A DNA stretch of 64,000 nt from a virus (lineage: Duplodnaviria > Heunggongvirae > Uroviricota > Caudoviricetes), in IMG/VR virus record IMGVR_UViG_3300031853_000005, positions 53,469-117,468 of that record; one strand, 5' to 3'. Both the position numbers and the translations under genes were made by a program. Below the pieces are notes generated by a model. That model ran no database searches. It saw only the letters and a list, made by a program, of their open reading frames with translations, and had not been told where the DNA came from. Below are positions 7,078 through 53,489 of this stretch, one piece after another. The first letter of the stretch is position 1. Each line of letters begins with the position of its first letter.

Positions 7078-7638
7078 ATGCGAGACCTGATGACCTATGC
7101 AAACTTCTGTATGGAAATGTTGGATGATATCGATGTTCCGTATCGCAAAGTAGAACAGTTCACGATCAACACAAGAGCGAGAAGATGGGGACTGTGTTCC
7201 CTGCGAGATGGAAAATATTATATCCAAATCAATGTAACGCTCCTGGATGAACGCAATGGAGAAGATGGATTAATCAACACAATTCTTCATGAGCTTCTTC
7301 ACACTTGCCCTGACTGCATGAATCACGGTGCGCAATGGAAATTTTGGGCTGAGAAAGTCCGGAAGGCATATGGATATAATATCAAGAGAACAAGCGACAA
7401 CGACGAGAAAGAGGTAACAACTGGAAATCTTAACTACCATCAGAGAGAATACAAGTATCATGTGTATTGTGAGAAGTGCGGAAAACTTGTCACAAGAAGA
7501 AAGAGAAGAAGCGATCTGCTGGATAATTTGGGAAGATATGTTCATAGTGGCTGCGGTGGAAAACTTTACTACACCGATACTGAATATCCTGATTCTAAAT
7601 TTGTTGTGTATTCCATCAAAACTGCCGCGAATAACTGA
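7078..7638 (+). CDS. SprT-like zinc metallopeptidase with C-terminal zinc ribbon
   Basis: HELLH (HExxH) motif in ILHELLHTCPDCMNHGAQW; CEKCG..CGG ribbon. Confidence 0.55.
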   Translation: MRDLMTYANFCMEMLDDIDVPYRKVEQFTINTRARRWGLCSLRDGKYYIQINVTLLDERNGEDGLINTILHELLHTCPDCMNHGAQWKFWAEKVRKAYGYNIKRTSDNDEKEVTTGNLNYHQREYKYHVYCEKCGKLVTRRKRRSDLLDNLGRYVHSGCGGKLYYTDTEYPDSKFVVYSIKTAANN

Positions 7639-21095: not shown

Positions 21096-21494
21096 ATGTC
21101 AGAACACAGAACGCCGTCCATCCCTCGCTGTGGCGAGATTTGGACTTGTCATCTTGGCGATAATGGCCCAGGCGTACAGAGTGGTTACAGACCTGTTTTG
21201 ATTCTGTCGAATGATCAGAATAATCTGTTCTCATCTGTGGTAAACGTCGCGCCATTGACCAGCAAGATGCATAAGCGTAGCCTCCCGGTACACGTAGAGC
21301 TTTGGGATTATGAAGCCTATGGGCTGAAGTCACCGAGTACGATTCTGATTGAGCAAACGACAACAATACAAATGAGCTGCCTGGATTTCCGAGTAGGGAA
21401 GATCCATGATAAAGAAATCATGGAACAGATATGGCTGGCAATTGAAGTTCAGTTTGCAATCAGAAAAGACCCGGCATATCCGAAAGCATCATGA
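21096..21494 (+). CDS. MazF/PemK-family endoribonuclease toxin-like protein
   Basis: GEIW..HLG...G.E..GYRPVLILSND..N.....V.VAPLTS......P..V.L...E..GL...S.IL.EQ..TI family pattern; own promoter, GGAAAGGA RBS. Confidence 0.6.
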   Translation: MSEHRTPSIPRCGEIWTCHLGDNGPGVQSGYRPVLILSNDQNNLFSSVVNVAPLTSKMHKRSLPVHVELWDYEAYGLKSPSTILIEQTTTIQMSCLDFRVGKIHDKEIMEQIWLAIEVQFAIRKDPAYPKAS

Positions 21495-23400: not shown

Positions 23401-23429
23401 TTGACAATGAAAAAGATGTGTGGTATAAT
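23401..23429 (+). promoter_or_regulatory. sigma-70 promoter TTGACA-17-TATAAT with TGn extended -10
   Basis: cagaaaataactaTTGACAatgaaaaagatgtgtggTATAATctc. Confidence 0.65.
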
Positions 23430-23827: not shown

Positions 23828-23904
23828 GCTGGTGTAGCTCAATTTGGCAGAGCGCGGCACTTGTAACGCCGATGTTGTGAGTTCGATTCTCACCACCAGC
23901 TCCA
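23828..23904 (+). tRNA. tRNA-Thr (anticodon TGT), CCA encoded
   Basis: Manual fold: acceptor GCTGGTG/CACCAGC, D arm GCTC..GAGC, anticodon loop CTTGTAA, T arm GTGAG-TTCGATT-CTCAC. Confidence 0.7.
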
Positions 23905-24290
23905 CCGGATCACATGAGGTCGTGACTTGTGTGATGCGCAGCGCCACCTTGTTCGTGCGGGGACAAGTGAGAGGGCCGCATCCCTCAAAAGGTCAGGAAC
24001 GTATCCTTAAGCATCCTGGACACCGCGCCCATTGAGGCGGGAAGAGCTGGGTAATTTCGCACCTACCCCAGACGCCAGAAAGTGACGGCAGAGCTGAATG
24101 GCAACGCAAGGTGCAACAATTCTTCGCCCGTAGAGTAGATTAACGTAGACCTGTATCGGGTGTCTGCCGGTGTGGAAACCGGTTAGTAAGCGAGTGGCGA
24201 CTGCCTACGTTCGGATGTTGCGGCTACCGAGTCCGTTAAGAGGAATCCAACCTTCGGTGGCCTTAAGCCTAAAAGAAAGAGTCGTGATCT
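23905..24290 (+). ncRNA. GC-rich (~55% GC vs ~40% background) ORF-poor structured region between tRNAs: candidate large structured ncRNA
   Basis: Numerous local hairpins (gccggtgtggaaaccggt, ggccttaagcc), no credible ORF; class undetermined. Confidence 0.3.
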
Positions 24291-24291
24291 G

Positions 24292-24489
24292 ATGGAATTT
24301 AAATTTGGCAAATGGAAGAAACTTGAAGGGCATTATATGACTCCTGGTGGAACTCCGTTGTATGTTTGCGCTCAGTGTGGTGGCTCTCAGCATCTTCATG
24401 GTGTTGAATTTTCACGGCGAAAGATGGTCTGTGATGACTGCGGCTGCGTGAATTCATATCCGTGGGAGAAGACATACGACGAAGAATAA
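24292..24489 (+). CDS. zinc-ribbon protein (65 aa)
   Basis: CAQCG..(n)..CDDCGC. Confidence 0.45.
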   Translation: MEFKFGKWKKLEGHYMTPGGTPLYVCAQCGGSQHLHGVEFSRRKMVCDDCGCVNSYPWEKTYDEE

Positions 24490-24505
24490 AACGAAAATTT
24501 AAAAT

Positions 24506-24581
24506 GGGCTGTTAGCTCAATCGGTTAGAGCCTGTGACTTATAATCGCAAGACCAGCGTTCGAATCGCTGACAGCCTACCA
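24506..24581 (+). tRNA. tRNA-Ile-like (anticodon TAT)
   Basis: Manual fold: acceptor GGGCTGT/ACAGCCT (G-U at 1:72), anticodon loop CTTATAA, T arm CAGCG-TTCGAAT-CGCTG, CCA encoded. Confidence 0.6.
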
Positions 24582-24584
24582 TAT

Positions 24585-24661
24585 GCTTCCGTGTCGCAAT
24601 CGGTAGACGGTGCTGGCTCAAACCCAGTTGTTTCACAGTTCGAATCTGTGCGGAAGCACCA
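24585..24661 (+). tRNA. class-I (short variable arm) tRNA with anticodon CAA (Leu codon UUG), A73 discriminator
   Basis: acceptor GCTTCCG/CGGAAGC, anticodon stem GCTGG/CCAGT loop CTCAAAC, 5-nt variable loop, T arm CACAG-TTCGAAT-CTGTG, CCA. Confidence 0.6.
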
Positions 24662-24782
24662 ATAGCACGTAAAGGCTGATAAAGAACGAGATACAGATAT
24701 GAAGAATATCCGAGGTCGAAAAACTACTGGCTGGATGATATCGTTCCAGCGCGTCCGAGATCGTTTAGTGGACGCATTCATA

Positions 24783-24859
24783 TATCCCAGTGGTGCAACT
24801 GGTAGACACAACAGATTTAAGCTCTGCGGTCTGAGAGTTCGAATCTCTCCTGGGATACC
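24783..24859 (+). tRNA. class-I tRNA with anticodon TAA (Leu codon UUA), G37, A73
   Basis: acceptor ATCCCAG/CTGGGAT, anticodon stem CAGA/TCTG loop TTTAAGC, 5-nt variable loop, T arm GAGAG-TTCGAAT-CTCTC, CCA. Confidence 0.6.
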
Positions 24860-25176
24860 AACCGTTCTTAGGGAAGCGCACATAGTACCGAAAGAACCGT
24901 GAGGATGGCAAAGCATGTGACTCACTGTCTCACGTAAATAAAGATGAGAATAATGCTAACTCTGGCACATTTTCCCACTTTACACGCTTATCTGAATTGA
25001 GAGATTAGGGGCAAAAAGTGGCGCTGGGTAGGAGGTTGAGTGCGCACCGTCCTACCCATGCGAGAAAGTAAAAATCATGGGGCGTTAGTGTAAAGAACAC
25101 ACGCAGAAAGCAAGGGCTGCGAAATGTGGGCGCGATACCTACACGCTCCACCAAATAAAATATAGGATTAATTACA
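24860..25176 (+). ncRNA. ORF-free structured spacer (8-bp GGGTAGGA/TCCTACCC hairpin and others) downstream of tRNA cluster
   Basis: No ORF; local GC-rich hairpins. Confidence 0.2.
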
Positions 25177-26199
25177 ATGCTGATAGGATTGATTGACGTA
25201 GACGGTCATCACTTCCCGAACCTGTGCCTGATGAAACTGTCGGCGTATCACAAACAGCTTGGAGATGATGTCGAGTGGTATTCAGAAGACAGAGAGATGT
25301 ACGACATTGTGTATATGTCAAAGGTCTTCAATGAAGAATACTCACCAGACATTCCGGAACCAGGCAACACAAGAAAAGTGATCAAAGGCGGGACTGGGTA
25401 TGCCATAAAACTGGAAGGCGATAGGGAAGTATATCACAAGGAGTTAGACCCCCCCCTACAACCTGAGATTGAACACATCTATCCTGATTACAGCTTATAT
25501 CCTGAGTATACTGGATACGGATTGCCGCTGAAGAAACAAACAGCATACGGATTCTTGACACGAGGATGTCCAAGAGGCTGCGGATTCTGTCACGTAGCCC
25601 CAAAGGAGGGAAGATGCAGTCAAAAAGTTGCTGATCTCTCGGAATTCTGGAACGGGCAAGGTAATATTTGTCTCTCTGATCCGAACATTCTGGCTTGCAA
25701 AGATGCTCCTGACTTGCTTCGGCAGTTGGTTGAATCCGGTGCAAAAGTTGAACTGAATCAGGGGATTGATGCCAGACTTATTACTCCTGAGAAAGCTGAT
25801 CTCCTGGCTCACATGAATCTCAAGATGCCGCACTTCGCGATGGACTCCATGCAAGCGATGGAACCGGTCAAGCGAGGACTGAAGCTGTATGTCGAAGCGT
25901 GTAAGAGAGTCAAAGGTAAATGGAACTGGCGAAATGCCAAGGTGTTCTGCCTGACAAACTTCGATACCACACACGAAGAAGACATGATGAGAATCAAGGC
26001 AATTCAGGAATGCGAGTGCTGGCCTTATGTGATGATCTACAACAAGATGACCGCGCCGCAAGTGACCAGAAGATTGCAGAGATGGACAAATGCTCCTGCC
26101 GCATACGCCAGAACGCAGGACTTTGACGAGTATCAGAGATTTACATATAAGAAACCGCCGAAAGAAATCGGGAATCAGAGACGGTTTAATGTGGCGTAA
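25177..26199 (+). CDS. radical SAM enzyme with N-terminal B12-binding-like region
   Basis: CPRGCGFC (CxxxCxxC) cluster motif; N-terminal DVDGHHFPNL. Confidence 0.6.
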   Translation: MLIGLIDVDGHHFPNLCLMKLSAYHKQLGDDVEWYSEDREMYDIVYMSKVFNEEYSPDIPEPGNTRKVIKGGTGYAIKLEGDREVYHKELDPPLQPEIEHIYPDYSLYPEYTGYGLPLKKQTAYGFLTRGCPRGCGFCHVAPKEGRCSQKVADLSEFWNGQGNICLSDPNILACKDAPDLLRQLVESGAKVELNQGIDARLITPEKADLLAHMNLKMPHFAMDSMQAMEPVKRGLKLYVEACKRVKGKWNWRNAKVFCLTNFDTTHEEDMMRIKAIQECECWPYVMIYNKMTAPQVTRRLQRWTNAPAAYARTQDFDEYQRFTYKKPPKEIGNQRRFNVA

Positions 26200-26219
26200 T
26201 AAAATTATAGGAGACAACA

Positions 26220-27005
26220 ATGGATAAGACATCAATAGGGGATCGGATGAAGGGATATGAAAACATCTCCCGAATCTATCTTCCGCGCCGGATTCCTGTG
26301 ATCATCCGCCTGGATGGTAAAGCATTCCACTCGTTCACAAGATGTTTTTGTAAACCGTTTGATAACGTTCTGATGAAAGCTATGCAGAACACAATGAAAA
26401 GACTGTGCGAAGGAATCCAAGGCTGTGTGTTTGGATATACGCAATCAGATGAAATCACTTTGATCTTGACGGATTACGCAACGATCAATACGGACGCCTG
26501 GTTTGGATATAATGTTCAAAAGATGGCGAGTGTTGCGGCATCTATGGCAACAGTATATTTTAATAACTCATGGCTTTTAGAGTGCAACCGTTTGCCTGAG
26601 AGTAACGACCGCGAATTTTATTTTGAGCAGCAAGGCAAAGCAATGTTTGACGCACGTTGCTTCTCCATCCCGAAGGATGAAGTCTGCAACTGCCTGATCT
26701 GGCGGCAACAGGACGCAACCAGAAATAGTGTTCAGGCTGTCGGTCAAGCACACTTCAGTCAGAAAGAACTGAATGGTAAATCCTGCAATGAGATCCAGGA
26801 TATGCTCTTCACCGAGAAGAACATCAACTGGGGAGATTTGCCTACAGACTGCAAGCGTGGTGCTGCCTGTTATAAATCCGATGAAGAAGCAAACTTCTTC
26901 TTTAGAAATGGAGAACAGACAATATACAAACGCGCTGGATGGGTGATTGACACAGAAATTCCGATCTTCACCAGCGACAGAAATTATATCGAACGCTGGC
27001 TGTAA
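26220..27005 (+). CDS. Thg1-like protein (tRNA-His guanylyltransferase / 3'-5' polymerase family)
   Basis: RLDGKAFHSF and GYTQSDEITL match Thg1 RLDGRNFHRF / GQSDEYSF; LIWRQQDATRNS cf. LSWRQADCHINN. Confidence 0.7.
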   Translation: MDKTSIGDRMKGYENISRIYLPRRIPVIIRLDGKAFHSFTRCFCKPFDNVLMKAMQNTMKRLCEGIQGCVFGYTQSDEITLILTDYATINTDAWFGYNVQKMASVAASMATVYFNNSWLLECNRLPESNDREFYFEQQGKAMFDARCFSIPKDEVCNCLIWRQQDATRNSVQAVGQAHFSQKELNGKSCNEIQDMLFTEKNINWGDLPTDCKRGAACYKSDEEANFFFRNGEQTIYKRAGWVIDTEIPIFTSDRNYIERWL

Positions 27006-27011
27006 CTTCAG

Positions 27012-27371
27012 ATGGATGAATCTTTCAGAGTAATCATCGCCGGTTCTCGCGGATTCTCAGACTACGATCTGCTGTGTGAGAAATGCGATAAACTCTTTTC
27101 CATGCGAAAGCCTACTGCGATTGTCTGCGGGGAAGCCAAAGGTGCTGATCTGCTTGGCAAACGATATGCAAAAGAACATGGGATTCCTGTGTGGTCGTTT
27201 CCTGCAAAGTGGGATCAATACGGCAAAGCTGCCGGTATGATGCGGAACAAGCAGATGCTTGCCTTTGCTGATGCTCTGGTTGCATTCTGGGACGGAGAAT
27301 CGCGTGGTACTGAGAACATGTTGGATATCGCCGCAAATAAAGGAATCCCAGTCAGAGTAATTTGTTATTAA
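27012..27371 (+). CDS. DUF2493/SLOG-family Rossmann-like protein
   Basis: VIIAGSRGFSDYDLL...IVCGEAKGADLLGKRYA...FWDGESRGT pattern. Confidence 0.55.
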   Translation: MDESFRVIIAGSRGFSDYDLLCEKCDKLFSMRKPTAIVCGEAKGADLLGKRYAKEHGIPVWSFPAKWDQYGKAAGMMRNKQMLAFADALVAFWDGESRGTENMLDIAANKGIPVRVICY

Positions 27372-27611
27372 TCAAAACCAGTTGGAGCGCCTGTTTCACG
27401 GTGGCAGAATAGTAAATAGGTGATGCCCTAACGACTCCACGAACCGCTGGTCTGGACGCGGACACGAAAGCGTAGGTACACGGTTGGCTGCCGATGACCT
27501 GCTGGATACGCCTTCCGCAGCAAGAGCCTGTCAGTGTTGATGGTCTGATAGGCAATAATGAGTGGGAGTAGCATACAATCAAACACTACTCCCACAGCGC
27601 TTAAAATATAT
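27372..27611 (+). other. noncoding GC-rich spacer with 10-bp perfect hairpin (GTGGGAGTAG...CTACTCCCAC) preceding tRNA-Ser
   Basis: Direct reading. Confidence 0.3.
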
Positions 27612-27698
27612 GTACACGATCCGGCTGGATGAGGAAGCAGTCCTGAAAACTGTCGGGGTTGATATCCCTTGGGGGTTCGAGTCCCTCCGTGTACGCCA
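27612..27698 (+). tRNA. tRNA-Ser (anticodon TGA), class II with variable arm, CCA encoded
   Basis: acceptor GTACACG/CGTGTAC, anticodon stem GCAGT/ACTGT loop CCTGAAA, variable stem GGGG..CCC, T arm GGGGG-TTCGAGT-CCCTC. Confidence 0.6.
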
Positions 27699-27705
27699 TA
27701 GAAAA

Positions 27706-28371
27706 CTAAGCTACAAAATTTGGATCTGCAAAAATATCAATGCATTTTTGCTTGTTGCGATTTGCGTTTTTAACAACTGAATGTGGATGAAAGATTTTGA
27801 AATGATCTTCCAGGCGAATATCATAACTCATCCGCTGCATTTCAGTCCAGCGATATTCTGATGCGATCTGCGAAAGACCGAACCAGTCACGGATATCTGC
27901 CGGTCTCTTAACTCTCATCCTGATCATTGCTGGAATCGGTGCAAGAAGAGAGGCGGCGAAGTAGTCAGCTTCTTCTTCCATATCCTTGTAATGTGATGGT
28001 GTTAATATCGCTTCGCCTGATTCAAGCAGTTCGATGAAATGTCCTGATGCGATATGCCCCAGCTCATGGGCTGTTGTCCAGCGGATTCTCTGCTTGCTGG
28101 CGTTGTATTTATCGGATGAATTAATCGCAATCAGATATCTGCCGGTTGATGGTTCATAGTTTGTGCATCCGTCCAGGCTGTTGCAGGCTTGAACAACTTC
28201 CTGATAAGTTACGCTGTTGATCTCAGCAAGTTTTTCGTATGTGATATGTCTGCACCTGGCGATCTTTCTTTCGATGGCGATTGGCTCAATAGGGAATGAA
28301 GCAAAGCGAAGAAAACCATCGTAAAGATCAAACACAATATCATCGATTCTTTGTTTGACTTGTTCTCTCAT
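27706..28371 (-). CDS. ImmA/IrrE-family zinc metalloprotease (anti-repressor protease)
   Basis: HELGHIASGH HExxH motif; coupled to upstream XRE gene by 4-nt overlap. Confidence 0.7.
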   Translation of the reverse strand: MREQVKQRIDDIVFDLYDGFLRFASFPIEPIAIERKIARCRHITYEKLAEINSVTYQEVVQACNSLDGCTNYEPSTGRYLIAINSSDKYNASKQRIRWTTAHELGHIASGHFIELLESGEAILTPSHYKDMEEEADYFAASLLAPIPAMIRMRVKRPADIRDWFGLSQIASEYRWTEMQRMSYDIRLEDHFKIFHPHSVVKNANRNKQKCIDIFADPNFVA

Positions 28372-28724
28372 TTCTCTTTGAATGCGTATTCGAAACCAGC
28401 GCGAAGAATGTTGTTCGCTTTTGTGCGGTCTTCTGGTTTGAGATTTTGAATGGCACGTTGCAGACTGATAAGATCAGAGTCAACCAATGATTCTGGATTC
28501 TCCTTCAGATCGGTTCTTCCGCAGAGATAGTCAACCGACACATGAAAGTATTGTGCAACTGCATTGATGCGATCTGTACCAGGCGTACTTTTCGGCCAGC
28601 GATAGGACGATCCGGCAGAGAAGCCAAGATCACGCTCCATCCTGGCAAGCGATATTCCTCGCTCTGCGCAAAGATCTTTGACACGGCTGAGAAGAACAGC
28701 GTTGTTCATGGATTCTTTTGCCAT
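28368..28724 (-). CDS. XRE-family helix-turn-helix transcriptional repressor
   Basis: LSRVKDLCAERGISLARMERDLGFSAGSSYRWP HTH pattern. Confidence 0.7.
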   Translation of the reverse strand: MAKESMNNAVLLSRVKDLCAERGISLARMERDLGFSAGSSYRWPKSTPGTDRINAVAQYFHVSVDYLCGRTDLKENPESLVDSDLISLQRAIQNLKPEDRTKANNILRAGFEYAFKEK

Positions 28725-28880
28725 AAAGCATACCTCCTGTTTAAAATTATGAAAAATATTTCATAACTGGTATTGACATATGAAAAATTTTGTAGTATAC
28801 TGCGCAATGTTCCAAGGTTGAAGCGATGCGAATCATAGTCAACCATTTTCATTGACATTGTATATGAAAATTTTCCTGAT
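28725..28880. promoter_or_regulatory. divergent switch region: promoters plus three reiterated operator-like sites TATGAAAA(A)TTTT
   Basis: ttatgaaaaatatttcataa (palindrome), atatgaaaaattttgtag, tatatgaaaattttcctg; two TTGACAT boxes. Confidence 0.55.
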
Positions 28881-29919
28881 GTCAACAGAAAAACAAGAAA
28901 ATTTGCATGAAGTGAGGGTGATTTTGTTGAATTTGGAGAAGTTTAATAGCATCAATGAGCTGAGAAGTTCGATTGAAGTAAGAAAGAAGTTCGTTGAAGA
29001 GTTTGAGATTCCGATTGATGTTTTCGAAGATCCTTATTTCAGCCAGAGATTGATCACTCTTAATCAGCTATACAATTGTCGCAAACTGTGGGATATGTTC
29101 ATTCAAGAAGTTTCAAGCTTTGAGTCATTTGATGATTACATCAGGTTCTATGAGTTTGAAGCTGCCGCCTGGAGGAATTATTTCAAGGATGCTGAATCAT
29201 ATATCACAAATGATCTGATTCAAAACAGCATAAAAAACGATATGATCTATCTTCCAGATGATGAGAACGTTCTTACTTGGCAAGATCATGGAAAGATGTT
29301 TATCAAATTCAGTTTCAAAGATAACGGATATGCAATGATGCATAAGATGCTACCAGAAAAGTTTACCTGCGAAACCTGGGCTGATATGTTGGATGATGGT
29401 CATCATCCTGAACATCTGAAGTACAGCAAAGAGTTCATGAAGAGAGCGTTTTTCGGATTCAGATTTCGCGGAATCCAGTTGCGATACATAATCTTCGGAA
29501 TGATCAGAGAAGGGATGAACAGGCTGACCGCTTCAAGATTCAGATACCAGACGATAGATGAACTTGTGTTTCAGATTACTGGTATTGTTGAACGCAGCGA
29601 CATCAATAGAATTCTGGATGACATTCCGAATCAGTTCGGTGAAACAGTCGATGTGGATATCATACAGGTTCAGGCTATCGGACACAAAGCGGAATATGGA
29701 TTCTTGGCTGAATCGATGCTGTCAGGAAATGTTAAGGTTATCGGATGTGATAACAAGTTCATCAATCAGGTCATGCTTTATATGAAGCGAGATTTGTTCT
29801 CTGCGGATGATCTGATCTTCAATTCGGATGGACACCTGGCGAAATTCTTAAACCCAATTGAGAATCCTTTTACATATATAAATCGCCCAGCAAAATTTAA
29901 TATTCCAGGGCTTTATTAA
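28864..29919 (+). CDS. hypothetical protein (~350 aa), start uncertain
   Basis: ORF 28852..29919; first codon of track lies inside -35 box so a later start is assumed. Confidence 0.5.
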   Translation: MKIFLMSTEKQENLHEVRVILLNLEKFNSINELRSSIEVRKKFVEEFEIPIDVFEDPYFSQRLITLNQLYNCRKLWDMFIQEVSSFESFDDYIRFYEFEAAAWRNYFKDAESYITNDLIQNSIKNDMIYLPDDENVLTWQDHGKMFIKFSFKDNGYAMMHKMLPEKFTCETWADMLDDGHHPEHLKYSKEFMKRAFFGFRFRGIQLRYIIFGMIREGMNRLTASRFRYQTIDELVFQITGIVERSDINRILDDIPNQFGETVDVDIIQVQAIGHKAEYGFLAESMLSGNVKVIGCDNKFINQVMLYMKRDLFSADDLIFNSDGHLAKFLNPIENPFTYINRPAKFNIPGLY

Positions 29920-29973
29920 GCCCTGTTTATATAAATCAATATACAATGGTCAATGACCAAAAGGAGAAGAGGA

Positions 29974-30099
29974 AATGGCAAACAGAGCGAAAGGCTGGAA
30001 TCTGAAGAACACATATGTTCAGAAGATGGAGAACAAGCAGAAGAAGCGTGACCGCAAGGAACGTATCAAAGAGTATGAAAAGATGAAGAAACGCGCATG
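29974..30099 (+). CDS. small basic protein (41 aa)
   Basis: GGAGAAGAGG RBS + ATG; K/R-rich. Confidence 0.3.
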
Positions 30100-30140
30100 A
30101 GATTGATACATATGGCAACAATAGAAGGTGGTGATGATAG

Positions 30141-32059
30141 GTGAAACATTATGGTGATATCACTAAACTGAAAGGCAGTGAACTTCCAGTTGTAGATTGT
30201 ATTACTGGTGGTTCACCTTGTTAGTCAGGATCTTTCTGTAGCTGGGAATCGCGCTGGTCTTGCTGGTGAACGATCTGGCTTGTTCATGGAACAGATTCGA
30301 ATTGTTAGGGAGATGAGAGAACATGATAGAGAACAAGGAAGAACTGGATCTGATGTCAGACCGCGATTCATGGTCTGGGAGAACGTCAAAGGCTGCTTCA
30401 ACAGCAACAAAGGAAAAGACTTCCAGGCAGTCCTCACGGAAATCTTCCGTATCGCAGTCCCGGATGCCCCTGATGTGCCTATGCCTGATTCGGGAAAATG
30501 GCCCTACTCCGGACTCCTACTCGATGAGGTGGGGGGGGGTATCAGTTGCCTGGAGGCTACACGACGCTCAATACTGGGGTGTACCCCAGCGTCGTGAGAG
30601 AGTCGCGATTGTCGCAGATTTTGGAGGATTGTCCGCAGGAGAAATACTATTTGAGTCCGAAAGCCTGCAAGGGAATCCTAACGAGAGCGGAGAGGCGCGG
30701 CAAGGAACTTCCACCGGAGCTGAAAGCAGCACTGATTGCGCAGTCAGCGTAAACGAAGACCGTGTTATTTCAAGTACAGTGGGGGGGTATATGCAAGCTT
30801 CCGAGAACCAGGTTGCAACTCTGATGGCAAGGGATTTCAAAGATCCCCAGATCATCATGAGAGCCTGATTGAAGATGCGGATAAGAATGGGTCGCAAGAG
30901 AAAACATTCTGTCTGGAAGGTAATGGTCAGAGACCATCACACCGAGGCGATGGATACATAGAATCAGACATCATGTACACGTTGAATAGTATTGAGCAAC
31001 ACGCGGTTTATGCTTTTGATTCTCTTTCCAGTAACAGCATGAAGTCCAAGAATCCACATAGCGGATGCAGAAAAGTTGAAGTGTCGAAAACACTTGATTG
31101 TTTTGATCCGAATCCATCAAAGAACCAGGGCGGTATTGCGGTTGTTGAAAGATGCGCCGGGTTCAAAGCTGGACAAAGCATGGCTGGAAGTCTTGGATAC
31201 GAAGATGAAATAAGTCCTACGCTTTCTGCAATGCCAAGTGGATTAGAGCCAACGGTGGTCATTTATGGAAATGAATAGGTTAATCTACGATGCCAGGGGG
31301 AATGGTGGGGGTATGATTAGCCCTACGATTACTGGTGATCATCAGGATAGGATCACAGATTATACTGCAATCATTGTAGAGTGTTATGCCAAACCTGGAT
31401 TTGATCGTTATGTGAAACAGGATATTTCAGATACGATCAGAGCATCCGGTGGAGATGTAGGGGGGGGCAGCGAAATGCTGATCGTTACACATGAGAGTGT
31501 ATGACGGTTGTCGGAGACACAATTACGAGTGTCTGGGTGAAGTATGTTGCACCGTACAGGCGTTCTGGGGTACAGGTGGGGGCAACATGCCGATAGTTCT
31601 GGAAGAAAAATCCATAATAAAAGCATCGTTTGATGATGATATTAACGATAAGAATTTGTGTGTGAATGGAAAGAAGGTGGTCGAATGAATGGTGTTTTGT
31701 CTGTAAGAAGACTTACACCTCTTTGACTTGAGTGCGAAAGACTTCAGGGAATGCCTGACGGTTGGACGGACATTGGTGATTGGGTAGACGAAAAAGGCAA
31801 GAAGCACAAAGCAGCGGACAGCCCACGTTATAAAGCCCTCGGAAACGGAATCGCATTGCCTTTTTGGGAATGGCTTCTCGGAAGAATTTCTGCTCAGTAT
31901 GACAGACCGGCTACACTTGGCAGCTTGTTTGATGGTATCGCAAGTTTTCCCCTGGCATGGTCAAAGTTCAACGGCAAAGAGAATTGTCTGTGGAGTTCTG
32001 AAATCGAACAGTTTCCGATTGCTGTAGCAAAGAAACATTTTCCAGATACGGAGGAATAA
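30141..32059 (+). pseudogene. C5-cytosine DNA methyltransferase, circularly permuted (IV-VI-VIII-TRD-IX-X then I) and disrupted by frameshifts and in-frame stops
   Basis: Across three frames: GDITKL..ITGGSPC (motif IV), QDLSVAGNRAGLAGERSGLF, MVWENVKG (VI), GVPQRRERVAIVADFGG (VIII), EKYYLSPK, ATLMARDFKDPQII, ISPTLSA, RRLTPL*LECERLQGMPDGWT, RYKALGNGIALPF (X), then LFDGIASFPLAW..ENCLWSSEIEQFPIAVAKKHFPD (motif I region) immediately before the stop. Confidence 0.75.
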
Positions 32060-32061
32060 CA

Positions 32062-32283
32062 ATGTTATGCAGTCGTTGCGGAGAAGAAATGCATCACTTT
32101 ATCGGAGCAGATGGAAAACGGTTAACTGAATTTCTGCGTTGTCCGAAGTGCTGGCTTGAAACAAAGCGGATGCGCTTTCATTTTGAGCCAGAAAGTACAA
32201 TAGAAAATAACCATAAAAAGGATGTGAAGAAAGTTGCTGGTAAACGGCGAAAGAGCACTGGCGTATGTCGTAAGCATCGATGA
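32062..32283 (+). CDS. zinc-ribbon protein (73 aa)
   Basis: CSRCG..(n)..CPKC. Confidence 0.45.
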   Translation: MLCSRCGEEMHHFIGADGKRLTEFLRCPKCWLETKRMRFHFEPESTIENNHKKDVKKVAGKRRKSTGVCRKHR

Positions 32284-33415
32284 GATCCAGCCGCTTGAAG
32301 GCTATGATCGCGTTGAATATGCGAGAACCAATGGCTGGTGGTGTATCATCGGCAAGGCTGATGGTATGAAGGTTGGGGATAAAGCAGTCTACTTTGAAGT
32401 GGACAGCAAAGTTCCTTCAACAGATAAGAGATTTGAGTTCCTTGAAAAGCGAAACTACAAGATCAAGACTCAGAAGATGTGCAAGGTATACAGCCAGGGA
32501 CTTCTGATGCCGCTGTCTGTATTTCCTGAACTTGGTGATGCGAAAGTGGGAACTGACGTAACCAAGAAGCTCAACATTACATACGCAGATCCAGAAGACA
32601 ATCAGCGCAAGGGCGGCGGTGATCCGAACGCTAAGTATAAATCAATGGCTGCGAGACATCAGAAGCTTTTCAAGTCAAAGCCTATTCGTTGGATGATGCG
32701 TCGCAAATGGGGCAAGAAACTGATGTTCTTGTTTTTCGGCAGAAAGAAAGATAAGCCGAAAGGATTTCCGTCTTTCGTTACGAAGACTGACGAAGAGCGT
32801 GTAGAGAACCAGCCGTGGAGAGTCGGAGACGGCAAGACCTATCTGGCAACCGAGAAGCTTGACGGTACGTCATGCACTTATGCTCTGAGGAGAATTCCTA
32901 AGAAGGCATTTCATAAAGCTGACTATGAGTTCTATGTTTGTTCCCGTAATGTCCGGCAGAAGGACGAAGACCAGAAGTGCTATCATGATCACAATATCTA
33001 CTGGGATCTCGCGTTCAAGTATGATATTGAAAAGCATCTGCGAGAGTTCCTGATCTGGCATCAGTCGTATGACTGGGTATGCATTCAGGGCGAGGGAGTC
33101 GGTTCTGTTCAGGGTAATCCTCTAAAGCTGAAAGAAGATGATCTGTACGTCTTCAACTTCATCGATTCGGTCAACGGGAGGTATCCTTCCGATCTTGGAA
33201 AGAAGACGATTGAAGAGTGGGGAATGAAGTGGGTTCCGATCCTCGGCGAAGTCACGCTGCCGGATACGATGGAAGCTCTGAAGGAAACCGCTGATGGCAA
33301 GTCTGTAGTGAATCCTGCGGTTGACAGAGAGGGTATCGTCTACAGATCCCTTGATGGTAAAGACTCATTCAAGAATGTTTCAAGAAAGTATCTTCTGAAA
33401 CATCAGAACGCTTAA
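32234..33415 (+). CDS. ATP-dependent RNA ligase (nucleotidyltransferase motifs I, IV, V)
   Basis: KLDGTS (motif I lysine), DREGIVYRS (EGxV), FKNVSRKYLLK; TTG start in track. Confidence 0.65.
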   Translation: MLVNGERALAYVVSIDEIQPLEGYDRVEYARTNGWWCIIGKADGMKVGDKAVYFEVDSKVPSTDKRFEFLEKRNYKIKTQKMCKVYSQGLLMPLSVFPELGDAKVGTDVTKKLNITYADPEDNQRKGGGDPNAKYKSMAARHQKLFKSKPIRWMMRRKWGKKLMFLFFGRKKDKPKGFPSFVTKTDEERVENQPWRVGDGKTYLATEKLDGTSCTYALRRIPKKAFHKADYEFYVCSRNVRQKDEDQKCYHDHNIYWDLAFKYDIEKHLREFLIWHQSYDWVCIQGEGVGSVQGNPLKLKEDDLYVFNFIDSVNGRYPSDLGKKTIEEWGMKWVPILGEVTLPDTMEALKETADGKSVVNPAVDREGIVYRSLDGKDSFKNVSRKYLLKHQNA

Positions 33416-33433
33416 GTTTTGTTTACATAATAT

Positions 33434-34441
33434 ATGAAACCTAAATTTTACATGCTGGTCGGTCTTCCTGGAAGTGGTAAGTCTCAGATTGCGGAAGAAT
33501 ATCGGCAACATTATGTTTGCGTACACTCTTCTGATGCGATCCGTAAGGAGCTTTACGGTGACGAGACTGATCAGAAACATAACGCAGAAGTCTTTGCTGA
33601 ACTTCACAAGAGAATCAAGAGATGTCTTAGCGACGGCTTTGATACCATGTACGATGCCTGCAATATCAGCAAGAAGCGCAGAGCGGCGTTTCTGAAAGAG
33701 CTGAAGAACATTGACTGCGAGAAGATCTGCCTCTGTGTGATGACTCCGTATGAGATCTGCTTGGAACGCAACAAGGCAAGAGATAGATCCATTCCGGAAC
33801 ACGCAATCAAGAAAATGTATCTCAATTGGTGTCCGCCTGATGTTGCTGAAGGATTCGATAGCGTGAAACTTCTGTTCCCGTTTGAGATTGAGAAGTCGTT
33901 TGAGAAATATGATCTCGATAATCTCTTCCGCAAAGGAACGGAGTTCATGAAGTTTGACCAGAAGAACAGGCATCATTCTCTGACGGTTGGCGAACACTGC
34001 TGGGCTGCTGCAAATTTTGTGTCCGATCTGATAAATAAGTATCATGACGTGTCGATAATAAAATTTAGAGAAGATGTTTTGGATAATCTGTGTCTTGTCG
34101 AGGATGCCGCTTGGCTTCATGATATAGGCAAACCGTTCACTGCTTCTTACTACAATGGGCGCGGTGAAAAGACGGACGAATTACACTATTATCAGCATCA
34201 TTGTGTTGGCGCGTATGACAGTATCTTCTATCTTAGAAACAATACTCCTGCGCGTGATCTGGATGATGAGTATGAAAAGTCGAGATGGCTTGCAATTTCC
34301 AACCTGATTTACTGGCACATGCATCCATTTACTGCCTGGAAGCAATCTTATAAAGCGATGAACCGTGACAGAAAGCTGATGTCGGAACGGACATTCAGGA
34401 ACGTTCTGCTTCTTTATGAAGCTGATAGGTCTTCGCACTGA
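33434..34441 (+). CDS. polynucleotide kinase (P-loop) fused to HD phosphohydrolase domain (Pnkp-like RNA/DNA end-healing enzyme)
   Basis: LVGLPGSGKS Walker A; C-terminal H..HD signature HSLTVGEHCW...LHDIGKP. Confidence 0.7.
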   Translation: MKPKFYMLVGLPGSGKSQIAEEYRQHYVCVHSSDAIRKELYGDETDQKHNAEVFAELHKRIKRCLSDGFDTMYDACNISKKRRAAFLKELKNIDCEKICLCVMTPYEICLERNKARDRSIPEHAIKKMYLNWCPPDVAEGFDSVKLLFPFEIEKSFEKYDLDNLFRKGTEFMKFDQKNRHHSLTVGEHCWAAANFVSDLINKYHDVSIIKFREDVLDNLCLVEDAAWLHDIGKPFTASYYNGRGEKTDELHYYQHHCVGAYDSIFYLRNNTPARDLDDEYEKSRWLAISNLIYWHMHPFTAWKQSYKAMNRDRKLMSERTFRNVLLLYEADRSSH

Positions 34442-35956: not shown

Positions 35957-36847
35957 ATGTTTGAGAAAGTAAATCGCCATCATCCAGATAAGATCGCAGA
36001 CCGTATCGCTGGTGCGATAGTTGATGTCGCATATAGAGAAAGCATCGATCCGAAGGTTGCATGTGAAGTCCTGATTGGTCACGGCAAATGCACGATTATC
36101 AATGAAACCAGCGAGTTCATCGATCCGAAAGAAGTTGAAAAGATCGTTCATCGTATTGCCGGCGAGGATGTCGATGTCAACTATATCGAAGTTCCGCAGG
36201 ACAAACATCTTTCCGATAACCAGGTAAACGGATTCCGTTGTGGTGATAATGGGATCTTCAAAGGTGTTGATCCGAGCAAGGAAGAGATTGCGCTTTCCAA
36301 TTTTGCCAGGTACATGGATTACTTCTTTGACAGTGATGGCAAGTATATCATTGCTGATAACACCATCACGGTTTGCCAGAGTGATCCTTCCGGCATTGGA
36401 CTTGAAAGACTGGAAGCCGCTGGATATGACATCAAGGATATTCCAACATCCGAGCTGATTCATAGAGTCGCAACGAATGTCTGGAATATGCAAGATCCGT
36501 TCTCGCTCAAGAAGAAGCCGATCAGATTCATCATCAATCCTCTTGGAGACTGGACTGGCGGTATCTCTGTCGATTCCGGTGCAACAAATCGCAAGCTTGG
36601 TTCTGACATGGGCAGAGGCGTAACTGGCGGTGGACTGCATGGTAAGGATTTGTCGAAAGCGGATGTGAGCCTAAACATCTATGCGTTCTACAAGGCGATT
36701 GAAACCGGAGAGCCTGCTGAACTGTGGTGCTCGATTGGTGATGATATCGTAGATGGCAAGACCTATTCCGAAATCGTTAAGGGTGCAAAGAAGATCATCT
36801 ATTCTGTTGGCGGATTTGAAAAATTCGCAGAGTATGGTCTGTTCTAA
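35957..36847 (+). CDS. metK: compact S-adenosylmethionine synthetase (MetK)-like protein
   Basis: HHPDKIADRIAGAIVDV..DPKVACE (cf. MetK EGHPDKIADQISDAVLDA..DPKARVACE), GDNGIFKG (cf. GDQGLMFG), FIINPLG, GGGLHGKDLSKADVS (cf. MetK signature GGGAFSGKDPSKVDRS); 296 aa vs ~385. Confidence 0.6.
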   Translation: MFEKVNRHHPDKIADRIAGAIVDVAYRESIDPKVACEVLIGHGKCTIINETSEFIDPKEVEKIVHRIAGEDVDVNYIEVPQDKHLSDNQVNGFRCGDNGIFKGVDPSKEEIALSNFARYMDYFFDSDGKYIIADNTITVCQSDPSGIGLERLEAAGYDIKDIPTSELIHRVATNVWNMQDPFSLKKKPIRFIINPLGDWTGGISVDSGATNRKLGSDMGRGVTGGGLHGKDLSKADVSLNIYAFYKAIETGEPAELWCSIGDDIVDGKTYSEIVKGAKKIIYSVGGFEKFAEYGLF

Positions 36848-50046: not shown

Positions 50047-50232
50047 GTGATTTATACATTTTTATGCCCTAAATGTGGGCAAAAACAAGATATTTCAATG
50101 AAAATTGAAACCTATAAATCGACTGGTCATCTCTGTTCGTGCGGAGCGGAGATGATCAGAGATCCGAAAGACTTCTGCCGAAGCTATGATGTGAAATGTG
50201 ATGGCTTCTATGCAGAACATCAGTCGCATTAA
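50047..50232 (+). CDS. zinc-ribbon protein (61 aa)
   Basis: CPKCG..CSCG. Confidence 0.4.
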   Translation: MIYTFLCPKCGQKQDISMKIETYKSTGHLCSCGAEMIRDPKDFCRSYDVKCDGFYAEHQSH

Positions 50233-51502
50233 GGAAGGTGAGGTTCTTTTGATTTACGATATTCATGATAAGCCGCCGATTGGTAAACTCTTGCTCTTCA
50301 GTTTGCAATTGCTTCTGTCCGTGTTTGTCGCAACGGTGTTGATTGCGAATATCTGCGGTGTAGCAGTCAGCGGTGCTCTGGCTGGGGCAGGACTTTCTAC
50401 CATGATTTATCTCTTTGTAACAGGGTATAAATCACCGATGTACATTTCAAACTCCGGTGCGTTCGTTGCGCCGGTTATGATTGCTTTGGCTGCTGGCGGC
50501 TATCCTGCTGTTGCGGTAGGCGGTCTTACTACATGCCTTGTGTACTGCATCTTCGGTCTTGTGTTCACAAAGATTCCAGTTGAAAACATCTACAAGATCT
50601 TTCCGAAGGCGCTGATCGGCGCGGTCACAATGGTAATCGGCATCACGCTGATGGGATTCATCGGGACGTATGTACAGATTGGAGGAGAAACAAATACATG
50701 GGGAATCATGATTGCATTGTTTACCGCGATTGTTATAGCGGTTACAAGCCATTATGCGAAGGGGATTGCGAAGATCCTTCCTTTCCTGATTGGCTCGATT
50801 GCAGGATATGTACTTGCGCTTATCTTGTCTATCGCTGGGATCATCCAGATCGTAGACTTAACCGTGTTCCAGAACATGAAGCTGTTCGCGCTTCCTGATG
50901 TTGCATGCCTGCATTGGAATTCGGTCAATTGGTCTCAGATCCTTCCTGTTATTCCGGTATATATCGCTTTTACAATAAGCGCCATGATGGAATGCCTCTC
51001 TGATCATGCTGCTCTCGGCGGTATTATCGGCAAGGATCTGTATAAGAATCCTGGACTCGCAAGGATTTTTGCCGGTGAAGGTCTTGCGAATCTGGCAAGC
51101 TCAATCTTCGGCGGACTCGGCGCTTGCTCTTATGGTGAGGGAGTTGCATGTGTAGGATTCTCAAGGGTGTCATCGACAATTGTAACCGGTACGGCTGCGT
51201 TTATGATGATACTTCTGGCATATATTCAGCCTGTACAGGCGTTTATCCAGAGCATTCCGAGCTGTGTATTCGGCGGCGCGGCAATTATACTTTACGGCTA
51301 TATTGCTTGCAGTGGAGTGAAGATGCTTCAGGGCGTTGATCTGAATGAGCAGAAGAATCTGATCATGGTTTCCAGTGTTCTGTCTCTCGGTATCAGCGGT
51401 CTCGCAATCGGCGGAGCAACCTTCGCACTTTCTGGAACTGCACTGGCTCTTGTCTTTGGCATCGTCTTAAATCTTATTCTGAAGGAGAAAGTGAATGAGT
51501 AA
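50198..51502 (+). CDS. polytopic membrane permease (>=10 TM), possibly NCS2-type nucleobase transporter
   Basis: Continuous hydrophobic helices, G/A-rich; family assignment tentative. Confidence 0.45.
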   Translation: MMASMQNISRIKEGEVLLIYDIHDKPPIGKLLLFSLQLLLSVFVATVLIANICGVAVSGALAGAGLSTMIYLFVTGYKSPMYISNSGAFVAPVMIALAAGGYPAVAVGGLTTCLVYCIFGLVFTKIPVENIYKIFPKALIGAVTMVIGITLMGFIGTYVQIGGETNTWGIMIALFTAIVIAVTSHYAKGIAKILPFLIGSIAGYVLALILSIAGIIQIVDLTVFQNMKLFALPDVACLHWNSVNWSQILPVIPVYIAFTISAMMECLSDHAALGGIIGKDLYKNPGLARIFAGEGLANLASSIFGGLGACSYGEGVACVGFSRVSSTIVTGTAAFMMILLAYIQPVQAFIQSIPSCVFGGAAIILYGYIACSGVKMLQGVDLNEQKNLIMVSSVLSLGISGLAIGGATFALSGTALALVFGIVLNLILKEKVNE

Positions 51503-53157: not shown

Positions 53158-53489
53158 AAGGGAAGTGCGCTGTCTGCGGTAAGGAAGGAGAAGTCTTCGT
53201 AGCTTGTTCAGCATGCGGAGCAATCTCCTTCGCGTACTGCGAGGATTGTTTGAATACAGGAGCAGAACCTTATGGTGCTCTTGTTGAATATATCTCATGT
53301 GCTGGCGATTCTCCGGAAGACATCAATGACACATATCTCAAAATCATTCGCGACACACTGTCCAGGCTGAATATTACAGAAGAACAGTTCTGGAAAGATG
53401 TCAAACAGTCAATCATTGATGAGAATGAATATTGGAAGGAACTTGCCGCACAAAATGATTCTAAAACAACGGAAGGTTTGCCGTTTTAA
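53154..53489 (+). CDS. zinc-finger protein (111 aa)
   Basis: CAVCG..CSACG..C..C. Confidence 0.5.
   Translation: MKGKCAVCGKEGEVFVACSACGAISFAYCEDCLNTGAEPYGALVEYISCAGDSPEDINDTYLKIIRDTLSRLNITEEQFWKDVKQSIIDENEYWKELAAQNDSKTTEGLPF

Follow-up and report, generated by a model that had tools for sequence, protein, structure and literature searches.

A putative tRNA supply-and-repair island in a large temperate phage with a probable gut Clostridia host

Gene content of the region

The 64,000-nucleotide stretch of DNA analyzed here in full (the window; positions 53,469 to 117,468 of the IMG/VR virus record IMGVR_UViG_3300031853_000005) comes from a phage of the Caudoviricetes. Between positions 23828 and 34441 it carries five tRNA genes together with genes for a Thg1-like protein, a radical S-adenosylmethionine (SAM) enzyme, a SLOG protein, an RNA ligase and a polynucleotide kinase-HD (Pnk-HD) protein. 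An original prediction, made from the sequence without database searches, described these genes and the adjoining lysogeny switch as a composite counter-defence and translation-support module, and all of its elements are present where it placed them. As argued below, the tRNAs, the Thg1-like protein, the ligase and the Pnk-HD protein make up a credible tRNA supply-and-repair island.

Its genes mark the window as the section of a large phage genome that holds early, replication and accessory functions, including an integrase, a PemK toxin, the annealing protein Sak, DnaB, DnaG, Pol III alpha and NrdD. Two independent assemblies, the 84.6-kb contig ENA ERZ27256883 and Logan SRR9036418, each differ from the window at one base only. 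Since the ENA contig reaches approximately 52 kb past the left edge of the window, and a Thg1-like protein 97% identical to that of the window is found on a 118-kb contig, we infer a genome size of about 118 kb. A clostridial host from the gut or rumen is probable, because Thg1 relatives with 59-63% identity occur in genomes and metagenome-assembled genomes of Flavonifractor, Ruminococcus and other Clostridia. The phage is large and temperate, with the island located in an accessory-gene zone beside the lysogeny switch. A megablast search with the whole island against 50,697 GenBank phage records gave no match. Analysis of the island proteins by PADLOC produced one marginal Cas3-HD match and nothing else, and thus none of them is a known defence component.

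The left part of the region is read rightward, downstream of a promoter-like site at 23401..23429 (+) identified by consensus match only (TTGACA-17-TATAAT, 12 of 12 positions, with TG), which lies upstream of the run of tRNA, radical SAM, Thg1 and SLOG genes. The predicted number of five tRNAs was borne out. Four of them, all on the plus strand and with an encoded CCA, were identified by both ARAGORN and Rfam above the gathering score: tRNA-Thr (UGU, 23828-23904, Rfam tRNA 64.2 bits), tRNA-Ile (UAU, 24506-24581), tRNA-Leu (CAA, 24585-24661) and tRNA-Leu (UAA, 24784-24860). Both tRNA-Leu genes have a type-I form, being 77 nucleotides long with a short variable loop, but possess a Leu-type D arm and A73. 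Homologues with compensatory stem changes were found in L040, L042 and L050 (L-numbers denote viral loci or contigs fetched for comparison with the window), and the type-I form of tRNA-Leu recurs in further Thg1-bearing phages (L060-L064). A bacterial precedent is the type I tRNA-Leu of Streptomyces coelicolor, which is charged by LeuRS (PMC6614811). The tRNA sets vary between strains: the tRNA-Leu (UAA) is kept in the relatives L198, L200 and L201, and the segment 24261-24667, comprising a 65-aa zinc-ribbon-like open reading frame (24292-24489, +), tRNA-Ile and tRNA-Leu (CAA), is an indel missing from L200 and L201. The noncoding stretch of about 385-387 nucleotides between tRNA-Thr and this reading frame (23905-24291) was considered as a structured RNA and dropped, because it has no Rfam match and folds no better than shuffled sequences (z -0.03).

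The fifth tRNA (27612 to 27694 or 27697, +; anticodon UGA, Ser) was not reported by ARAGORN, and its sole Rfam match is tRNA-Sec at 33.5 bits, which is under the gathering score of 47. Comparison with L198 revealed five base pairs that change on both sides in a compensatory manner, of which three belong to the acceptor stem and two to the T stem; the anticodon region is invariant. This indicates that the element is a real structured tRNA, and it is 99% conserved in L200-L202. The gene encodes a long variable arm, the anticodon loop CCUGAAA with C at position 33, G73 and CCA. Its D arm is unusually compact, with a 4-bp stem and a 4-nucleotide loop immediately 3' of the acceptor stem. This tRNA combines a tRNA-Sec-like shape with a Ser anticodon, and its gene is overlooked by standard tRNA finders.

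Profile searches for Thg1 (PF04446), RNA ligase, HD and AAA_33 domains, proposed with the original prediction as its check, upheld all of these domain assignments. The Thg1-like protein (26220-27005, +; phrog_4717) scored 109.4 bits against PF04446, for which the cut-off is 29.2. It aligns end to end with its closest solved relative, the Thg1-like protein (TLP) of Bacillus thuringiensis (BtTLP, PDB 4kgk; E 6.6e-63), and the catalytic motifs RxDG and SDE of this enzyme correspond to 'rldGkafh' and 'qSDEitl' in the phage protein. The similarity to human- and yeast-type Thg1 chains is much lower (E 1e-7), which places the protein in the bacterial TLP clade. Members of this clade perform templated repair, and the phage protein is a predicted templated 3'-5' nucleotidyltransferase for repair of tRNA 5' ends. 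GenBank contains 164 phage records with an annotated Thg1-like gene; around Thg1 in the cultured phages FADO and PMBT8 the annotation is mostly 'hypothetical' and uninformative.

Only 6 nucleotides downstream of Thg1 lies the gene for the SLOG protein (27012-27371, +; phrog_289). The prediction of a DUF2493 protein agrees with its score against PF10686 (YAcAr, 61.7 bits with a cut-off of 28.2); the protein has no sequence relative in the PDB, and NCBIfam contains no match for it, for the Thg1-like protein or for the radical SAM protein. The same-strand order of Thg1 followed by SLOG recurs in L181 (49-nucleotide gap) and in L037/L038 (approximately 590 nucleotides), two lineages in which Thg1 is just 53-65% identical to that of the window. 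In three more lineages a SLOG gene is present within 10 kb of Thg1, and in phage Nate a SLOG gene (annotated 'GTP-binding domain') lies 4.4 kb from the ligase and Pnk-HD genes. Previously, SLOG genes were reported in 19-31% of medium and jumbo phages and proposed to encode degraders of ADP-ribose-derived immune signals (PMC9503650). Since SLOG genes are common in phages and have an anti-signalling role proposed for them, the connection with Thg1 is suggestive and not established, and the SLOG protein may be either a partner of Thg1 or the product of an independent anti-signalling gene.

The right part of the region contains the RNA ligase (32234-33415, +) and, 18 nucleotides after its end, the Pnk-HD gene (33434-34441, +). 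The ligase has an OB domain (PF21189, residues 9-94) and a nucleotidyltransferase domain (PF09414, residues 202-380), in agreement with the predicted ligase function. Its closest solved relative is the RNA ligase of Naegleria gruberi (NgrRnl, PDB 5cot; E 1.3e-40), with which both domains align up to the last residue, and the motif I lysine (KxDG) is found in 'eKLDGtS' aligned with 'vKLDGsS' of NgrRnl. In contrast to NgrRnl, the phage ligase has an insert of 40-50 residues between the two domains (residues ~123-177 unaligned). The N-terminal OB domain followed by the nucleotidyltransferase domain, with no C-terminal OB domain, is the layout of Rnl5 ligases. The score against TIGR02306 (RNA_lig_DRB0094) was 75.3 bits, which is below the equivalog cut-off (151.15); by sequence, the protein is a family-level Rnl5 relative and not a TIGR02306 equivalog.

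The Pnk-HD protein was predicted to be a kinase/HD end-healing enzyme, and both of its domains were recovered: AAA_33 with 74 bits, and HD with 18.8 bits in the window protein (cut-off 22) and with matches in all four orthologues (best Pfam E-value 2.4e-7). The kinase occupies residues 1-150 and the HD domain residues ~180-335. The P-loop GxxGSGKS, the catalytic Asp (SSD) and the H..HD..H..H..D residues are all invariant. Against the PDB, a profile of four sequences matched the kinase domain of CthPnkp (4gp7, E 3e-21) and T4 Pnk (1ltq, E 2.7e-5), and its C-terminal half matched the HD region of the Aquifex A-adding enzyme (3wfp, E 6.6e-7). Judged by these alignments, the HD half is most like the HD domain of class II A-/CCA-adding enzymes. 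The family phrog_6931 matches the kinase through the C-terminal half of the phrog. The protein is thus a predicted end-healing enzyme with 5'-OH polynucleotide kinase and HD phosphohydrolase functions.

The genes for the ligase and Pnk-HD are direct neighbours not only in the window and its strain relatives (L198, L201 and L202; the L200 contig stops just past the ligase gene) but also in L092 and the cultured Bacillus phage Nate. In Nate their stop and start codons overlap. In Bacillus phages of the Tsamsa/Nate group, according to their GenBank annotation, an RNA ligase gene is immediately followed by the gene for a full-length orthologue of Pnk-HD (30% identity, 99-100% coverage). However, the Nate ligase gp172 belongs to another ligase family without significant similarity to the window ligase, and the Nate stretch compared contains no Thg1. 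Pnk-HD proteins therefore pair with ligases of different families.

Gene neighbourhoods of phage Thg1-like proteins

Co-occurrence around Thg1 was analyzed using 80 viral loci with Thg1 homologues, which formed 30 clusters at 90% identity, and 80 control viral loci chosen by the radical SAM protein, 78 of which were usable and formed 63 clusters. A partner gene was counted when located within 10 kb, and the two sets of clusters were compared by the Fisher test. Rnl5-like ligases were found in 9 of 30 Thg1 clusters and in 1 of 63 control clusters (p 1.2e-4). The other partners were absent from all 63 control clusters: the RlaP nucleotidyltransferase was present in 9/30 Thg1 clusters (p 1.5e-5), the CCA-adding enzyme and polynucleotide kinase in 5/30 each (p 2.7e-3 for both), and SLOG in 3/30 (p 0.03). 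Of the 30 Thg1 clusters, 16 had one or more of the repair partners ligase, Pnk, RlaP and CCA-adding enzyme, and tRNA genes were located within the same distance in 10 of the 30 representative Thg1 loci.

Several loci are compact. In L059, Thg1 is followed by genes for proteins of 60 and 104 aa, Rnl5, a 215-aa protein and Pnk-HD, all inside 4.3 kb. The ligase adjoins Thg1 in L072, L184 and L190, and RlaP adjoins it in L075; L078 combines a T4-type Pnkp with Rnl5 and Thg1, and near the Thg1 gene of L071 lies one for a bacterial Pnkp with three domains. In the commonest lineage (the L004 group), four genes separate Thg1 from the RlaP and CCA-adding enzyme genes, and an Rnl5 gene is located 9 kb upstream. 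The Thg1-bearing phage contig L054 has another translation-rescue element, a tmRNA (7174-7515, tag ADYAIAA) 2.5 kb upstream of Thg1.

The syntenic relative L090 has the same frame of ImmA/HTH, Rnl5, Pnk-HD and Sak genes as the window, but contains RlaP, a homologue of the orphan 355-aa protein and a CCA-adding enzyme in the place of Thg1/SLOG and the orphan gene, suggesting that this slot holds interchangeable tRNA-end repair genes. Taken together, the enrichment, the compact loci, the L090 frame and the conserved adjacency of ligase and Pnk-HD support a functional link between the tRNAs, Thg1, ligase and Pnk-HD. Thus, the predicted composite module is retained for these four components, for which enrichment and adjacency speak, and loses the radical SAM gene and the lysogeny switch.

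Genes outside the repair function

The radical SAM gene (25177-26199, +) encodes a protein with the CX3CX2C cluster motif, the radical SAM core fold and an N-terminal Rossmann (B12-binding-like) domain. Its description as a B12-type enzyme is a fair one for the architecture, since 263-277 residues align with MgmA, TsrM and AprD4, including the Rossmann fold, but there is no Pfam B12-binding match, and cobalamin is a candidate cofactor. AprD4 and the methylthiotransferases share the radical SAM/Rossmann fold and yet are not known to use B12. A BFVD fold search with this protein gave nothing beyond 'radical SAM'. The gene is a clean 1-kb cassette indel (25173-26207): it is absent from L198 and L200-L203, whose Thg1 proteins are 91-97% identical to that of the window, and the DNA of these relatives aligns up to window positions 25172 and 26208 on the two sides of the gene. 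The family is very large: the word index gave at least 8000 matches, clustering at 50% identity produced 2587 groups, and viral contigs were matched at least 599 times. The neighbours of radical SAM genes in 80 other phage loci include DnaB, replication initiators, C5 and N6 methylases, RusA and PAPS-reductase-like proteins; Thg1 and Pnk are absent from these loci, and a ligase occurs in only one. A role as a tRNA-modifying partner of Thg1 was rejected because of the cassette indel and the lack of co-occurrence, and on the same grounds the gene does not belong to the predicted module. From the sequence comparisons, it is a hitch-hiking mobile cassette unrelated to the repair island.

Three further observations concern this gene. 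A poly-C tract within it (25449-25456) is C8 and in frame in the window, and C7 in the otherwise identical assemblies L081 and L082, where the gene is split into products of 117 and 225 aa; phase variation is one possible cause, and an assembly error that recurs is another. At 35957-36847 the window encodes a short SAM-synthetase-like protein that has the N-terminal domain only and is kept in strains without the radical SAM gene. In the small prophages L083-L086, a truncated SAM-synthetase-like gene directly follows the radical SAM homologue.

Between the two parts of the island lie an ImmA/IrrE metallopeptidase (27706-28371, -; PF06114) and a helix-turn-helix (HTH) repressor (28368-28724, -; PF13443), accompanied by divergent promoter-like sites at 28773-28801 (+) and 28885-28857 (-). 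By its domains, this pair is an ordinary lysogeny switch, an interloper outside the repair function and unrelated to the module in which it had been placed; together with a methylase remnant it splits the island into two sub-clusters.

The orphan gene that follows (28852-29919, +) encodes a protein of 355 aa (330 aa from the called start) without a match in Pfam, PHROG, NCBIfam, PADLOC or the PDB, including a profile search against the latter. It has two close clusters only among 5.8 billion proteins, and its AlphaFold model has no usable fold (pLDDT, the predicted local distance difference test, of 34). This protein is homologous (E 3e-20) to the product of the 331-aa gene of L090 (2609-3604), which overlaps two genes, those for RlaP and for the CCA-adding enzyme, and by this gene context it is a possible accessory repair factor.

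The C5 DNA methyltransferase region (about 30130-32059, +) contains approximately eight frame changes and an in-frame stop. Its 5' end lacks motif I, the remaining motifs are clearly recognisable, and its 3' end is the beginning (~50 codons) of a second methylase, which suggests decay of a tandem methylase gene. The remnant is identical in three assemblies and is further deleted in L200. Stop-codon recoding was rejected as the cause of the fragmentation, since the breaks are frame changes and not only in-frame stops, and no suppressor tRNA was found by ARAGORN. As read from the sequence, the region is a pseudogene outside the repair mechanism. Just upstream of the remnant, L201 (14076-14600) and L202 (9107-9631), whose Thg1 is 97% identical, have an HNH (I-HmuI-like) homing endonuclease gene that is absent from the window. 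A 73-aa open reading frame (32062-32283, +) follows the remnant.

Elsewhere in the window, a gene for a PemK/MazF-family endoribonuclease toxin (21096-21494) adjoins the integrase gene, 2.3 kb upstream of the tRNA cluster. Toxins of this type leave 2',3'-cyclic-phosphate and 5'-OH ends, as the Pnk-HD enzyme would heal. The replication and nucleotide-metabolism block contains a full-length gene of the xanthine/uracil permease family (50198-51502; PF00860, E 1.2e-50), an unusual phage cargo.

A tRNA supply-and-repair reading and its alternatives

We regard the region as probably a tRNA supply-and-repair island of the ~118-kb temperate phage, with two functional sub-clusters separated by unrelated genes. 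The domain identities, catalytic motifs, gene order and co-occurrence statistics described above are the grounds on which enzyme activities, tRNA as the substrate and a counter-defence role are proposed. The first sub-cluster (23828-27697) would be read rightward, possibly from the consensus-like promoter at 23401. Its five tRNAs would replace isoacceptors for the codons ACA, AUA, UUG, UUA and UCA (grouped here as A/U-ending codons). On tRNAs that have lost 5' nucleotides, the Thg1-like enzyme would restore them by 3'-5' addition templated by the 3' acceptor strand. The second sub-cluster (32234-34441) would represent a heal-and-seal pair acting when a host or competitor ribonuclease cuts a tRNA and leaves 2',3'-cyclic-phosphate and 5'-OH ends, in which the HD domain opens and removes the 2',3'-cyclic or 3'-phosphate, the P-loop domain phosphorylates the 5'-OH, and the Rnl5-type ligase seals the resulting 3'-OH/5'-PO4 break. 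The outcome would be that translation is kept going despite tRNA-cutting ribonucleases.

Several observations weigh against this interpretation. The sub-clusters are 4.9 kb apart, with genes on both strands and a pseudogene between them, and hence do not form one operon. No repair partner is found within 10 kb of Thg1 in 14 of the 30 Thg1 lineages, and part of the enrichment near Thg1 could reflect genome size, because the control loci come mostly from smaller phages. In addition, Rnl5 enzymes (DraRnl, NgrRnl) prefer nicks in duplex RNA, and thus breaks in tRNA stems would suit the ligase better than T4-style breaks in the anticodon loop.

An alternative view is that the region is an accessory-gene hotspot beside the lysogeny module, gaining and losing unrelated genes, in which the repair-like genes are neighbours by accident and each acts alone. 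The mobility of the locus is in line with this view: the radical SAM gene and the segment 24261-24667 are both indels, the former as a clean cassette, tRNAs differ from strain to strain, a methylase gene has decayed to a pseudogene, relatives carry an HNH insertion or a further deletion, and the genes directly flanking Thg1 vary from phage to phage. Accidental proximity nevertheless appears unlikely, given that Thg1 has ligase, Pnk, RlaP and CCA-adding genes close by far more often than the control loci do, that ligase and Pnk-HD remain adjacent in distant phages, even between ligase families, and that Thg1, ligase and Pnk-HD form a compact cluster in L059. It is also conceivable that only the tRNAs and Thg1 serve translation, and that the ligase and Pnk-HD repair other nucleic acids, such as nicks in RNA:DNA hybrids or RNA-primed DNA in replication or recombination. 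The pair is located just upstream of the block containing Sak, DnaB, DnaG and Pol III alpha, and the closest solved relative of the ligase is NgrRnl, a duplex nick-sealing enzyme. A further point in its favour comes from the Runella HD-Pnk, which works on DNA and RNA ends (PMC6097658). We consider this alternative quite improbable, since Rnl5-like ligases co-occur with Thg1, the CCA-adding enzyme and RlaP far above the level of the control loci, and the HD half of Pnk-HD is most similar to the HD domain of a tRNA nucleotidyltransferase.

Two proposals concern the Thg1-like protein itself. It might be a maturation enzyme, adding G-1 to tRNA-His or completing the 5' ends of the unusual phage tRNAs, as suggested by its database names (tRNA-His guanylyltransferase) and by the position of its gene among the phage tRNAs, two of which are structurally atypical. 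However, ARAGORN found no tRNA-His gene in the window, the acceptor stems of all five tRNAs are fully paired and require no 5' editing, and sequence similarity puts the protein much nearer the bacterial TLP clade than eukaryotic Thg1, all of which make such a role very improbable. A broader and distinctly doubtful extension of the tRNA supply-and-repair reading places further elements in the same counter-defence: Thg1 and SLOG would form a two-gene unit for repair or editing of tRNA 5' ends, in which SLOG senses 5' nucleotide damage or cuts out the affected nucleotide and the 3'-5' polymerase then rebuilds the end, the 355-aa protein would be a further repair factor, and the atypical tRNAs (the type-I tRNA-Leu and the tRNA-Ser with its compact D arm) would be nuclease-evading replacements.

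The tRNA supply-and-repair reading has counterparts in known systems. The original prediction referred to the T4 paradigm of Pnkp and Rnl1, which reverses PrrC cleavage of tRNA-Lys. This comparison is correct as a functional analogy, because a kinase/phosphoesterase heals and an ATP-dependent ligase seals as proposed here, and the island kinase domain is detectably related to T4 Pnk. It fails for family membership: the C-terminal half of the island protein is an HD domain in place of the DxDxT (HAD, DxD acylphosphatase) 3'-phosphatase of T4-type enzymes, and the ligase is an Rnl5 enzyme with an N-terminal OB domain and not an Rnl1. A comparable layout is that of the HD-Pnk from Runella slithyformis, a single protein that unites an HD 2',3'-phosphoesterase with a P-loop 5'-OH kinase; its gene adjoins that of a ligase (Munir and Shuman 2017, summarised in PMC6097658). 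The island shares the one-polypeptide arrangement beside a ligase gene but has the reversed order (kinase N-terminal, HD C-terminal), is phage-borne, and its partner ligase is a recognisable Rnl5. With the HD domain replacing DxDxT and the domain order reversed, Pnk-HD falls outside both the T4-type and the Runella-type families.

Jumbo phages are conventionally those with genomes of ~200 kb or more, and the phage described here is below this size. For jumbo phages, an RNA-repair repertoire has been described that includes tRNAs, ATP-dependent RNA ligases, polynucleotide kinases, phosphoesterases, RlaP, CCA-adding enzymes and, sporadically, Thg1 for restoration of 5' ends (Iyer, Anantharaman, Krishnan, Burroughs and Aravind 2021, Viruses 13:63; PMC7824862). 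Its parts list and logic are the same as those of the island. The differences are that the phage has a genome of ~118 kb, is temperate and probably infects gut Clostridia, that the island is located at the lysogeny switch, and that its ligase is of the Rnl5 type, whereas RtcB, Rnl1 and Rnl2 are the ligases named in the text consulted.

The repair toolkit is thus already described for jumbo phages, and the island adds another example that leaves the current picture unchanged; with the radical SAM gene removed from the module, its widespread phage family becomes a separate question. The island is a clear case, in a temperate phage of probable gut Clostridia, of spare tRNAs carried together with tRNA repair enzymes, and its modularity is apparent from the slot for Thg1 and SLOG, which a relative fills with RlaP, the orphan gene and a CCA-adding enzyme. 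It also provides testable material in the form of a Pnk-HD enzyme with reversed domain order, an Rnl5 ligase in a phage repair context and a possible Thg1-SLOG pair.

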